Assembly (NCBI GenBank): GCA_022710775.1
Contig: JAKLGH010000002.1
Span: 76,707-140,706 of the forward strand
DNA: 64,000 nt
From: Patescibacteria group bacterium
GTDB lineage: Bacteria; Patescibacteriota; Minisyncoccia; Minisyncoccales; UBA5738
Reading direction: 5' to 3'
This document shows positions 25,813 to 28,195 of the stretch, one piece after another; position 1 is the first letter of the stretch, and every line of letters starts with the position of its first letter. The notes under the pieces were generated by a model that saw only the letters and a list, made by a program, of their open reading frames with translations, searched no databases and was not told the DNA's origin. The position numbers and the translations under genes are program-made.

Positions 25813-27027
25813 ATGTTTTTCTTCGATCTAAAACAACAATATCAAAATTTAAAAGCCGAGATTGACGCGGCCGTTCTTGGCGTTTTGGAAAAAGGTGTTT
25901 TCATTGGAGGCGAGGAAGTCGAGAATTTTGAAAGGTCTATGGCTGAATATTTAGGCGTGAAACACGCCGTCAGTCTGAATTCCGGAACTGACGCGCTTTT
26001 TCTTTCCTTAAAGGCCCTGGGTATCAAGGAAGGCGACGAAGTAATTACAACGCCCTTCACTTTTATTGCCACAGCCGATGCCATTGCGGCTTGCGGCGCC
26101 AAGCCAATATTTGTCGATATTGATCCCAAAACCTTCAACCTTGACCCCGCCGCTTTATTCATCAAACTTAACGAGCTTAAAAAACTTAATCAGCTTAATA
26201 AGCTAAAGGCTGTTATCCCTGTCCACCTCTTCGGCCAAATGGCTGACATGGCCGCGATTATGGAAGTAGCGAATAAATTCGGCTTGAAGGTTGTTGAAGA
26301 CTGCGCCCAATCGCTGGGAGCGGAGCAGAGCGTAAGCGGGGAACAGCAAGAAGGTGAGAAAAGCAATAAAAAGAAAGGTTATTTAGATGCTTGTGCAGAG
26401 GCCGAAATTTCGGTAAAGAGTGGAACGGTCGGTGATTTTGGTTGTTTTTCATTTTTTCCAACCAAGAACTTGGGCGCTTGCGGCGACGGGGGAATGATTG
26501 CGACAAACGACAACGCAATATACGAAAAAATTAAATTACTGAAAGCGCACGGTTCCTCGCCGCAGGATAAATACCGCCATTTATCTTTGGGTGTGAATTC
26601 GCGCTTGGACGCAATCCAAGCCGCGATCTTGAACGTAAAAATCAAGCATTTGGACGAATGGAACAAAAAACGCGCAGAAATCGCCGGTTGTTATAATGAA
26701 GCATTAAAAGATATAGATGGTCTTATAACTCCCGCAGTAAACTTTGGCAATACTCATGTTTATCATCAATACACAATCAGGGTGGCCAAGCGCGAGCAGC
26801 TGCAGAAATTTTTGAAGGAAAAGGGTATTCCAATTATGGTCTATTATTCCATACCGTTGCACTTGCAGTCGGCTTTCGGATACCTTGGCGAAAAAGCTGG
26901 CGATTTTCCCGAAGCCGAATGTGCCGCCAAAGAAGTGATGAGCTTGCCGATATATCCGGAAATGAACAAAAAAGATCAAGATTCGGTTATTAAGGCGATC
27001 AAAGAATTTTATGGAACCAAAGCCTAA
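25813..27027 (+). CDS. DegT/DnrJ/EryC1/StrS-family PLP aminotransferase, WbpE-like, with two insertions
   Basis: Family motifs DAIAACGAKPIFVDID, VEDCAQSLGA and FSFFPTKNLGACGDGGM. The extra segments are LNELKKLNQLNKLK and a roughly 30-aa acidic/basic insert. Confidence 0.8.
   Translation: MFFFDLKQQYQNLKAEIDAAVLGVLEKGVFIGGEEVENFERSMAEYLGVKHAVSLNSGTDALFLSLKALGIKEGDEVITTPFTFIATADAIAACGAKPIFVDIDPKTFNLDPAALFIKLNELKKLNQLNKLKAVIPVHLFGQMADMAAIMEVANKFGLKVVEDCAQSLGAEQSVSGEQQEGEKSNKKKGYLDACAEAEISVKSGTVGDFGCFSFFPTKNLGACGDGGMIATNDNAIYEKIKLLKAHGSSPQDKYRHLSLGVNSRLDAIQAAILNVKIKHLDEWNKKRAEIAGCYNEALKDIDGLITPAVNFGNTHVYHQYTIRVAKREQLQKFLKEKGIPIMVYYSIPLHLQSAFGYLGEKAGDFPEAECAAKEVMSLPIYPEMNKKDQDSVIKAIKEFYGTKA
26164..26208 (+). 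repeat. Five in-frame 9-nt CTTAA-type quasi-repeats inside the aminotransferase gene
   Basis: aaacttaac gagcttaaa aaacttaat cagcttaat aagctaaag encodes KLN ELK KLN QLN KLK. Confidence 0.85.
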
Positions 27028-28195
27028 ACTTAATAAGCTTAAAAGACTTAATAAACTTAAAAAGCTTGATGGTCTTAAGCCGCTGGTTCTTGTCGGTGCC
27101 CGGCCTAATTTCATTAAAATCGCGCCTTTATTTTGGGAATTGAAAAATCATCCTGGAATCAAGCCGGTTCTGGTTCACACCGGCCAGCATTATGATTTTG
27201 AGATGTCGCAGGCTTTTTTTCATGACTTGGATATTCCTAAGCCCGACTATAATTTGGGAATAGGGTCGGGTACGCATGGCGCCCAAACCGGCCTTACGAT
27301 GATAGAATTTGAAAAGATCGTTGCCAAAGAAGCTCCCAATGTTGTTATCGTTGTCGGAGACGTCAATTCTACGCTGGCCGGGGCGCTGGTTGCCAAAAAA
27401 ATGCATATTGCGGTGGCGCATATCGAGGCCGGTTTGCGAAGCTTTGATATGGATATGCCCGAAGAGGTGAACCGCGTTTTAACCGACCACATATCGGATT
27501 ATTTGTTTTGCCCCACTAAAACAGCGGTATCGAATCTTAAAAAAGAGGGGATTGTTAAAAACGTTTTCAATGTTGGCGACATAATGTACGATATTTTGAA
27601 AATAAAAGAAAAAGAACTTAAACCGGATATTCTGGGAAAATTAAGCGTAAAATCCAAAGAATATCTGCTTTTGACCATTCATCGGGCTTCGAATGCCGAT
27701 AATCCGGAAAACCTGAAAAAAATAATCGGCGCGGTTTTAAAAATCAAGGAAAAGGTGGTTTTTCCGGTCCATCCAAGAACCAGGGTTCAGATTGTTAAGC
27801 TTGTTAAGTTTTTTAAGCCTTTTAAGAAACTTAAAACACTTAATGAGCTTAATGAACTTAATCAGCTTAGTACGCTTAACGGACTAACTAATATACTTTT
27901 TACCGAGCCGGTTGGTTACATGGAAATGCTGGCGCTGGAAAAAAACGCCAAAAGAATCCTGACCGACAGCGGCGGAGTTCAAAAAGAAGCGTTTTGGCTG
28001 AAAGTGCCATGCATTACTTTGCGCGACGAAACAGAGTGGGTGGAAACTTTATCGGGGGGGTGGAATGTTCTGGCGGGAACGGATGAAAAAAAGACCATAC
28101 AGGCTTTGAATCGTTCCTTTCCCCGCGGCAAACAGGGATTTTATTATGGAGACGGCCATACCGCTGGGAAAATAATTAGAGCGTTATTTAAGTGA
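27011..28195 (+). CDS. Non-hydrolysing UDP-N-acetylhexosamine 2-epimerase, WecB/WbpI-like, with repeat-derived N-terminal extension and internal insertion
   Basis: GARPNFIKIAPL, HTGQHYD, GDVNSTLAGAL, HIEAGLRS and DSGGVQKEA motifs. Start is uncertain because the first ~20 codons are repeat tract. Confidence 0.8.
   Translation: MEPKPKLNKLKRLNKLKKLDGLKPLVLVGARPNFIKIAPLFWELKNHPGIKPVLVHTGQHYDFEMSQAFFHDLDIPKPDYNLGIGSGTHGAQTGLTMIEFEKIVAKEAPNVVIVVGDVNSTLAGALVAKKMHIAVAHIEAGLRSFDMDMPEEVNRVLTDHISDYLFCPTKTAVSNLKKEGIVKNVFNVGDIMYDILKIKEKELKPDILGKLSVKSKEYLLLTIHRASNADNPENLKKIIGAVLKIKEKVVFPVHPRTRVQIVKLVKFFKPFKKLKTLNELNELNQLSTLNGLTNILFTEPVGYMEMLALEKNAKRILTDSGGVQKEAFWLKVPCITLRDETEWVETLSGGWNVLAGTDEKKTIQALNRSFPRGKQGFYYGDGHTAGKIIRALFK
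27026..27079 (+). repeat. Six 9-nt CTTAA-type quasi-repeats spanning the aminotransferase stop and the epimerase N-terminus
   Basis: Units are aaacttaat aagcttaaa agacttaat aaacttaaa aagcttgat ggtcttaag. Confidence 0.85.
27791..27889 (+). repeat. In-frame composite tract: four TTAAG-type then seven CTTAA-type 9-nt units (self-complementary)
   Basis: The sequence attgttaag cttgttaag ttttttaag ccttttaag | aaacttaaa acacttaat gagcttaat gaacttaat cagcttagt acgcttaac ggactaact has its centre at TTTTAAG-aaa-CTTAAAA. Confidence 0.85.

Follow-up and report, generated by a model that had tools for sequence, protein, structure and literature searches.

Nine-nucleotide repeats in frame within enzymes of a Paceibacterota sugar-nucleotide operon, and their likeness to the arms of four-helix-bundle gene cassettes

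We describe tandem copies of a 9-nt repeat, the pentanucleotide CTTAA followed by four variable bases, that lie in frame within conserved enzyme genes of a sugar-nucleotide operon. The operon is part of a 64-kb stretch of DNA (hereafter the window; contig JAKLGH010000002.1, positions 76,707 to 140,706) from an uncultured Candidatus Paceibacterota genome of the candidate phyla radiation (CPR). The unit is defined by its nucleotides, its number varies between relatives, and the same repeat family makes up the arms around a four-helix-bundle (4HB) gene of the operon. The operon holds two such genes, each lying between repeat arms, and both encode members of PF05635, a protein family originally discovered within the intervening sequences (IVS) of 23S rRNA. 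On balance we lean towards the view that the tracts belong to a slippage-prone 9-nt repeat family shared with the stems of IVS-like 4HB cassettes, and that they have been tolerated or domesticated as surface segments of the enzymes. The sequence may have passed from cassette arm to coding tract, or in the reverse direction.

A nine-nucleotide unit inside conserved enzyme genes

A search of the window for three consecutive units (CTTAANNNNCTTAANNNNCTTAA, i.e. (CTTAA-N4)x3) with at most one mismatch gave 20 matches where 0.01 were expected (the mean of 100 dinucleotide-preserving shuffles), and all 20 are confined to positions 25257-27879. Tandem Repeats Finder independently reported arrays of period 9/18 at 25770-25809, 26164-26204, 27028-27062 and 27792-27869; the units are imperfect, with array identities of 70-88%. 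These positions fall in a WbpA/B/D/E/I-type operon (22.1-28.2 kb) for a 2,3-diacetamido sugar acid pathway, assigned by Pfam and PDB matches, whose genes and tracts are listed in Table 1. A preliminary description, made from the letters alone, had placed three in-frame tracts at 26164, 27026 and 27791, and both their coordinates and their translations proved exact. The first holds four exact CTTAA units and a degenerate CTAAA, the second five exact units and CTTGA, and the CTTAA half of the third five exact units together with CTTAG and CTAAC. The third tract had also been described as self-complementary, and its segment 27791-27862 does fold into a hairpin of about 25 bp that makes use of G-U pairs (free energy, ΔG, -30.5 kcal/mol; z = -3.9; 0 of 200 shuffles as good).

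Table 1. Genes and repeat tracts of the operon (positions in the window)
Feature	Position	Strand	Remarks
UDP-sugar dehydrogenase	22115-23437		
4HB-1, 5′ arm	23439-23490	+	untranslated 9-nt array, unit AGCAAGAAN; Tandem Repeats Finder period 9
4HB-1 gene	23523-23876	+	117-aa four-helix-bundle '23S rRNA intervening-sequence protein'; PF05635 E = 1.2e-39; PF22296 bAvd-like E = 5.7e-14
4HB-1, 3′ arm	23885-23950	+	complementary to 23439-23490
Gfo/Idh/MocA oxidoreductase	23956-24756		
Hexapeptide acetyltransferase	24737-25375		
Acetyltransferase-tail tract	~25238-25300	+	TTAAG orientation, in frame, ~19 aa; candidate 5′ arm of 4HB-2
4HB-2 gene	25372-25749	+	second PF05635 gene, 125 aa; Pfam E = 7.9e-39
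Untranslated spacer copy, 3′ arm of 4HB-2	25745-25815	+	two TTAAG units then ~five CTTAA units; local hairpin; in-phase TAA
DegT-family aminotransferase	25813-27027		404 aa; stop TAA 27025-27027
Aminotransferase CTTAA tract	26164-26208	+	in frame, encodes KLNELKKLNQLNKLK, residues 118-132
Second aminotransferase insert	26326-26415	+	residues 172-201, ~30 aa, low-complexity Glu/Lys/Ser-rich; PDB alignments split there
2-Epimerase (UDP-2,3-diacetamido-2,3-dideoxy-glucuronate 2-epimerase homologue)	27011-28195		394 aa; ATG at 27011
Gene-junction CTTAA tract	27026-27079	+	begins inside the aminotransferase stop codon (27025-27027); encodes epimerase N-terminal extension KLNKLKRLNKLKKLDGLK
Epimerase internal hairpin	27791-27889	+	in frame, without open reading frame (ORF) of its own; TTAAG x4 (27791-27826), then CTTAA-type x7 (27830-27889)

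Every CTTAA tract is read as CTT-AAN-NNN and every TTAAG tract as xTT-AAG. Translated copies are thus restricted to stop-free frames, one other frame of the unit containing TAA, and in the translated units the third codon, which is variable, specifies a polar residue or glycine only (E, K, Q, R, T or G). Leucine is encoded by CTT at 17 of 20 codons within the tracts, as against 58 of 313 outside them (eight surrounding genes; Fisher p = 1.4e-9). Because of this codon bias, of the untranslated spacer copy and of the other frames in which the motif is read elsewhere, the unit has to be regarded as a nucleotide-level entity and not as a peptide motif. An identical epimerase protein is found on 11 contigs from four sources (NCBI, GCA_035914655.1; ENA; JGI; Logan assemblies), so the tracts are not an assembly artefact. 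By eye, the borders of the tracts show no target-site duplication.

None of the segments aligns to a conserved region of its enzyme family; they are extra to it, and PDB homologues as well as most of the retrieved database homologues lack them. The host proteins had been put at about 30-40 aa longer than typical family members. This is correct for total length, the epimerase having 394 aa where most of the 120 homologues listed have 350-370, and the aminotransferase 404 where about 367-375 is usual, but the CTTAA tract accounts for only some 8 of the aminotransferase residues (in comparison with PDB 7b0d and 3frk) and the second insert for about 30. Compared with PDB 8sxv, the epimerase has about 20 extra residues at the N-terminus and about 22 between positions 260 and 292. 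Its GARPN motif is preceded by 28 residues (7-11 in most homologues), and its HPRT-to-PVGY segment comprises 42 aa, a distance that is 17-24 aa in 53 of the 58 homologues scored.

The preliminary description likened the tracts to a minisatellite, and the unit number does shift among relatives in steps of 9 nt, seen as 3-aa steps in protein alignments. At the internal epimerase site, where the window has four TTAAG and seven CTTAA-type units (42 aa), locus L204 (83% identity to the window epimerase) has one unit fewer and a different loop (39 aa), L205 (81%) has four CTTAA units (36 aa), and L003 (75%) has a degenerate tract of equal length (42 aa). L207 (55%) carries two to three TTAAG and four CTTAA units. 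L206 and L004 (both 61%) have direct CTTAA units without an inverted arm, and their epimerase N-termini are identical, yet the units number seven in the one and three in the other. The N-terminal tract is two to three units shorter in homologues P0003 and P0004. About half of 74 CPR homologues possess the aminotransferase tract, which shows indels of 3 aa and 1 aa, and its hydrophobic residues recur at three-residue spacing in 25 of the 74, down to about 58% identity; the epimerase hairpin is common to relatives at 75-83% identity. Since they are shared by orthologues at 58-83% identity, the tracts must be old. The earlier statement that the element spreads in this operon suggests recent activity and in that respect needs changing.

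Inserts with other units occupy the same proteins. The aminotransferase family has three hot spots for lineage-specific periodic inserts, to which the epimerase family adds two or more. Around the second aminotransferase insert the basal segment is 13-17 aa and reaches 71 aa in the relative P0124; its units in the window, AGCAAGAA / AGCGAGAA, are related to the 4HB-1 arm unit, and periodic AGCGAGAA units recur in this region in L003, L208 and L209. Other periodic inserts were seen at the same loop hot spots in the epimerase homologues P0083 and P0062 and the aminotransferase homologues P0130, P0182 and P0186, examples being TQLPN..., THLNTYPLTHL, ADRADVADN...LKSAKSAN and KLTKQVSTYKLSKLK; these look like translated hairpin repeats with other units.

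Gene cassettes with repeat arms and the descent of the tracts

Both 4HB genes of the window, whose products share 58% identity, are flanked by complementary 9-nt periodic arms, of unit AGCAAGAAN at 4HB-1 and of TTAAG/CTTAA type at 4HB-2, and duplexes were found for both. In the fold of minimum free energy the two arms of 4HB-1 form a long-range stem with the ORF between them (z = -2.8). The candidate 5′ arm of 4HB-2 sits in frame within the acetyltransferase tail, where about 19 aa are missing from the L003 orthologue (the alignment stops at residue 172). The claim that the coding tracts are of the same repeat type as the spacer arms was borne out. The CTTAA-type tract of the window and L209 matches the window 4HB-2 arm at 25-27 of 31 positions, against a baseline of 15-20 of 31 for tracts compared with unrelated arms. 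In L003 and L208 the aminotransferase tract is of a DSLSKLGKL type and agrees in 27-28 of 31 positions with the 3′ arm of an ORF-less hairpin; furthermore, a non-periodic GATTCA is common to the L208 tract and the L209 hairpin. From these alignments, coding tracts and spacer arms appear to be homologous.

The ORF-less hairpins occupy the spacer between the dehydrogenase and oxidoreductase genes. In the window and in L208 this spacer holds 4HB-1 with its AGCAAGAAN arms, as an orthologous cassette, and in L003 and L209 a 9-nt periodic hairpin of unit AAGYTWRNT; 4HB-2 is present in the window and absent from the other three. The spacer is probably a fixed site of cassette turnover. We considered concerted evolution within each genome, as the L003 tract matches its own spacer hairpin at 28 of 31 positions, but with L208 and L209 all four combinations of tract type and hairpin type are represented, so only the weaker claim of shared sequence families is kept.

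Arms of this general design are not peculiar to the window. Relatives of its 4HB proteins were found at 80 metagenome loci (L124-L203), of which 64 have both flanks. The best period was 7 nt in 92 of the 128 4HB flanks as against 24 of 162 controls, and strong periodicity was seen in 41 of 128 as against 1 of 162. At 41 of the 64 loci the match between the upstream flank and the reverse-complemented downstream flank exceeds the 95th percentile of controls. The arm unit is specific to the locus (for example AGGAGTC/GACTCCT or TAGAATG/CATTCTA). PF05635 genes are thus generally embedded between inverted tandem-repeat arms, mostly of 7 nt. Nonamer arms were rejected as a general feature, the single period-9 match being ordinary coding sequence, and the cassettes described here may be seen as IVS-like elements that sit in an mRNA operon and have, unusually, a period of 9 nt. 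In the literature as searched here, the sole related report of tandem-repeat arms at PF05635 genes concerns the Coxiella IVS, in which a stem cut by RNase III encloses the S23p (PF05635) ORF in its loop and strain-variable GACAGAT heptamers precede the start codon (PMC4990558).

A second instance of an arm inside an enzyme is found at L207, where the 4HB gene abuts the epimerase gene. The upstream flank of this 4HB gene consists of 8-nt units and pairs weakly with the immediate downstream flank (ΔG -10.9), but strongly with an insert of 8-nt period that lies in frame 75 nt into the epimerase gene (ΔG -29.5; control -12.3 +/- 2.9, minimum -22.4). As the unit is not divisible by three, the frame of the insert is kept by its total length only, and TAA is replaced by TCG or TCA in every third unit, the very change that translation of an 8-nt repeat requires. 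Judged by pairing and periodicity, L207 would be the strongest independent case of an arm inside coding sequence.

Considering these data together, the tracts would be copies of a short-period nucleotide repeat, CTTAA plus four variable bases in either orientation, of the same kind as the units in the inverted tandem-repeat arms around PF05635 4HB genes. In a compact CPR operon, arms and the arrays derived from them probably overlap neighbouring coding sequences or come to lie inside them. They could survive there because a 9-nt unit is a multiple of three, because the frames used avoid TAA, and because the sites are permissive surface helices or loops. Units would be gained and lost by replication slippage, a change that the differences between relatives reveal in part, and sequence would have passed between coding tracts and intergenic arms, the Leu/Lys/Asn-rich peptides being by-products.

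Several observations weigh against this reading. The tracts at 26164, 27026 and 27791 lie 0.4-2.1 kb from 4HB-2, the only gene in the window with CTTAA-type arms, so 'cassette arms' is a label that we infer for them. A clear 9-nt arm was found in none of the 64 metagenome loci. L003 and L209 retain tracts though their operons have no 4HB gene. In a scan of one genome per species, which is not a census, (CTTAA-N4)x4 occurred in at least 119 stretches, and a 4HB gene lay within about 4 kb in 0 of these 119 loci (tblastn with both 4HB proteins; best E = 0.84); (CTTAA-N4)n arrays thus also exist without cassettes and are not generally tied to them. The epimerase cluster at 90% identity is a single sequence, so that length variation is seen between relatives only. 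Even at 58% identity the aminotransferase tract has kept a leucine in every third position, and its model is a confident one, which suggests a constraint at the protein level. Finally, the native epimerase segment at the internal site is KKQLKKLK in many homologues, and part of the epimerase tract may stem from slippage in place and not from insertion.

The last point can be taken further, to codon slippage in place without any link to 4HB genes. Native codons of Lys/Leu helices (AAA CAG CTT AAA AAG CTT) would then have seeded 9-nt repeats independently at each site, and the likeness to the arms would be convergence on the easily repeated palindromes CTTAAG and AAGCTT. Besides the native KKQLKKLK, from which an array could grow where it stands, the epimerase of P0012 is 9-nt periodic at the native length of 17 aa; the arrays without a nearby 4HB gene occur in many phyla, and relatives whose operon has no 4HB gene have kept the tracts. 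Slippage of this kind leaves unexplained, however, the inverted TTAAG arm beside the CTTAA arm, the identity of 27-28 of 31 positions between tract and spacer arm together with the shared GATTCA, the in-frame insert as best partner of the L207 flank, and the clustering of all arrays of the 64 kb within 2.7 kb of a cassette. We consider independent seeding at each site quite unlikely, and convergence as the source of the arm likeness to be so in equal measure. Should the link to the 4HB cassettes fail, the tracts would be an ordinary in-frame minisatellite.

Other observations at these loci concern further genes. Besides the genes of the window and of the metagenome loci, the observation of repeat arms around PF05635 four-helix-bundle genes takes in one at L004:7384-7764. 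The dehydrogenase homologue of the same locus (L004:50-2890; 946 aa) has intein and LAGLIDADG Pfam matches, and its intein is probably another selfish insert in the pathway.

Possible roles in RNA and in protein

The tracts had also been proposed as RNA-level pairing partners of the 4HB cassette arms. Thermodynamically this is possible, as the pairing of any TTAAG arm with any CTTAA tract clearly exceeds background (z = -2.5 to -6.5) and the acetyltransferase-tail tract pairs with all CTTAA tracts (ΔG -27 to -42). Under such an explanation, the tracts would act as pairing partners in the polycistronic mRNA, in local or long-range stems, which seems to us unlikely; the effects that might follow, namely cutting by RNase III as in rRNA IVS stems, slowing of ribosomes or stabilisation of segments, with consequences for the relative expression of enzymes and 4HB proteins, are unlikely to the same degree. 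The strength of the epimerase hairpin, with its G-U pairs, the pairing of the 4HB-1 arms across their ORF and the preference of the L207 flank for the in-frame insert all speak for RNA, and IVS stems with an S23p ORF are substrates of RNase III in Coxiella (PMC4990558). The pairing is promiscuous, though: no tract has a unique partner, and those at 26164 and 27026 are single arms with distant partners only. Nor is there a strand bias over 67 cassettes (sense -58.5, antisense -57.2, p = 0.44), the minus strand of the window pairing as well as the plus strand; a stem working in sense RNA, in which G-U pairs should favour the sense duplex, was rejected on this result. Tract type does not co-vary with spacer-hairpin type, all four combinations occurring in four genomes. 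Only five sequences carry the epimerase hairpin, and their repeat-unit alignment is ambiguous. The tracts of L206 and L004, as direct repeats, have no inverted arm at the site, and cleavage within three enzyme genes would destroy their mRNAs. The Rfam search gave no family; its one match, to a microRNA, was sub-threshold (24 bits, gathering score 100). At 22-29 kb of the window there was no rRNA match, and no tract has a terminator-like site. The putative RNA function is a live rival to the 4HB-linked repeat family.

At the protein level, the model of the epimerase has a mean pLDDT (predicted local distance difference test) of 88.9 and a template-modelling (TM) score of 0.84 to PDB 8syb, with values of 47-54 for the N-terminal tract and 61-67 for the internal one. 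For the aminotransferase the mean is 83.9, the CTTAA tract, a helix extension, reaching about 94 and the second insert 42-57. The suggestion that the tracts are tolerated as surface loops therefore suits the epimerase, whose tracts look in the model like tolerated surface excursions, but not the aminotransferase, in which a confident helix is extended; there an old tract may have been domesticated as a fixed structural helix. The tracts would have no enzymatic role.

It might be argued that the peptides themselves are selected, LxxLxx / xxK segments serving for example as helices that dock consecutive enzymes to one another or to the membrane, with the nucleotide repeat as their mere encoding. 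Four consecutive pathway genes do have similar segments, the variable codon is always polar, and the three-residue hydrophobic spacing of the aminotransferase, with its high confidence in the model, is maintained in homologues with diverged codons (CTT AGT AAG, TTG). The extreme CTT bias is unnecessary for encoding leucine, however, and the same units are held by untranslated spacers, where they form cassette arms. Other genomes translate the motif in other frames, and the L207 insert, with a period of 8 nt, gives a peptide without the three-residue pattern. The epimerase tracts combine low model confidence with a freely variable unit number, and the segments are missing from about half of the related aminotransferases and from most of the retrieved epimerases. 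Selection for the peptide thus seems very unlikely as the origin of the tracts.

Known repeat elements and wider occurrence

The nearest known kinds are rRNA IVS, the Rickettsia palindromic elements (RPEs) and the in-frame repeats of Borgs, and the window elements lack at least one defining feature of each. With the IVS of Leptospira, Coxiella and the CPR the cassettes share a PF05635 ORF in the loop of a stem built from flanking inverted repeats, and short tandem repeats of variable copy number adjoining the ORF. PF05635 ORFs have been described within insertions of CPR 16S and 23S rRNA genes (PMC11270868; preprint 10.1101/2024.02.27.582315). In the window, by contrast, the host is a protein-coding sugar-nucleotide operon and not a 23S or 16S rRNA helix; the arms are 9-nt periodic and partly translated in neighbouring enzymes, and ORF-less copies and single arms lie in coding sequence.

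RPEs were reportedly presented by Ogata et al. in 2000 as selfish DNA in protein-coding genes. They are dispersed copies of fixed consensus elements of about 100-150 bp. The likeness lies in hairpin-capable repeat DNA that is in frame in conserved proteins, translated and tolerated at their surface, and it is partial, the tract at 27791-27889 being palindromic and those at 26164 and 27026 single arms. The window elements differ in having no fixed-length consensus but modular 9-nt units of variable number, some as single arms, and a link to 4HB cassettes. They are also not dispersed, all copies lying within 25.2-27.9 kb of the 64-kb window. RPEs are discussed further in PMC1779305.

Borg tandem repeats create amino-acid repeats (Schoelmerich et al., 2023, PMC9879509). 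As in the window, they occur within and between genes, units in ORFs are divisible by three (9 nt here), unit number differs between close relatives, and disorder is frequent in the encoded segments. In Borgs the repeats are perfect, of recent origin and direct, whereas those of the window are imperfect (a 5-nt core and four free bases) and old (58-83% identity), occur in both orientations as hairpin arms, and share their units with the arms of gene cassettes. The heptamers of the cyanobacterial short tandemly repeated repetitive (STRR) sequences and the TAACTGA repeats of Beggiatoaceae are likewise tandem arrays of 7-9 nt, and their phyla overlap with those of our (CTTAA-N4)n matches (Nostocales and Bacteroidota); that they act in translation or at the RNA level is so far a proposal (PMC4679880). 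They differ in being almost all intergenic direct repeats, and the same paper describes neither a PF05635 link nor in-frame copies in enzymes (PMC4679880). PARCEL elements (PMC2996958) are tandem coding repeats with dyad-symmetric DNA, but their unit is a domain of 25 residues in ORFs of unknown function, often membrane proteins, and not 9 nt in conserved enzymes; identity with them was rejected for the length of the unit.

The 119 stretches in the distribution scan belong mostly to Bacteroidia, Ignavibacteria, Nostocales and several CPR classes, and many are perfect tandem 9-mers. Within the 64 kb the repeat type is confined to the operon, but it is found elsewhere, in other CPR genomes among them, and its length varies among relatives; neither outcome that would have refuted the preliminary description, alignment to conserved family regions or confinement without length variation, was observed. 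In the CPR loci L053 and L104 the motif is read in a different frame and gives LS/LR peptides in ORFs, and a Collierbacteria genome has it in frame in a Mur ligase, within the linker that joins the M and C domains. At L019 a tract suspected to be an insertion in 16S rRNA was rejected as such: the gene (721-2247) has the normal length of 1527 nt, matching model positions 1-1533, and the CTTAAG-periodic stretch (L019:1412-1444) is part of a 16S rRNA helix, not an IVS.

The hairpins known as repetitive extragenic palindromes (REPs), bacterial interspersed mosaic elements (BIMEs) and REPINs (REP doublets forming hairpins) are moved by Y1 transposases called RAYTs (REP-associated tyrosine transposases), and REPs are extragenic and not periodic. 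The tracts of the window differ from them in being intragenic and periodic. Closer to REPs and REPINs, as short dispersed imperfect palindromes at gene junctions, are hairpins that we observed in Saccharibacteria: L012, L085, L098, L107 and L111 carry closely similar TTAAG x3-4 / CTTAA x3-4 hairpins with permuted spacer tetramers, which had a ΔG of -38 to -48 in three that were examined; those examined lie at gene junctions, and two copies come from one metagenome-assembled genome. Their sequence suggests a dispersed REP-like element. A further likeness is a Y1_Tnp gene beside the operon in L003 and L209, the two loci with an ORF-less spacer hairpin and without a 4HB gene. The gene encodes a Y1 transposase of PF01797 (IS200/RAYT-like) and is found immediately upstream of the operon (L003:2386-3108; L209:1-134), and its product could be the mobiliser of the hairpin. 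No Y1 transposase is encoded among the called genes of L001 (window ~17-38 kb).

A wider interpretation can be sketched, which we put forward tentatively and think rather unlikely as a whole. PF05635 genes with tandem-repeat stems would form an unrecognised class of IVS-like hairpin cassettes that colonises rRNA and mRNA operons and writes its stem repeats into neighbouring CPR enzymes; to suit translation, either the period (9 nt) or the unit (stops edited out) would have been adapted. The Avd-like 4HB protein might maintain the stems, spread them or shield them from RNase III, and the whole would be a selfish element shaping the sequence of host proteins. 

To our knowledge, the function of the 'intervening-sequence protein' family has remained unknown for 30 years. 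If the link between the tracts and the 4HB cassettes holds, the biology of this family would extend from rRNA to mRNA operons and would gain a concrete anatomy, in which tandem-repeat arms enclose an ORF and have a period that is typically 7 nt and here 9 nt. The lineage-specific low-complexity loop inserts that are common in CPR proteins would then be footprints of hairpin repeats and not adaptive domains, with consequences for CPR annotation, alignment-based phylogeny and structure prediction. The tracts would also offer a natural example of translation filtering nucleotide repeats, through fixation of CTT, avoidance of the TAA frame, and editing of stops in every third 8-nt unit.

Repeats of other kinds are present elsewhere in the window. 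A perfect 25-nt repeat of 2.4 copies lies at 14026-14084, and a perfect 53-nt tandem repeat of 2.5 copies at 63011-63144, outside any stop-free span of at least 100 aa. A stop-free span of 657 aa (17539-19512) contains a stretch of (Gly-Thr)n, which corresponds to a 6/18-nt repeat (CCGGAA/CAGGAA) at 18026-18105, and at 19723-19830 a 39-nt coding repeat of 2.8 copies encodes KADKADIQNL....

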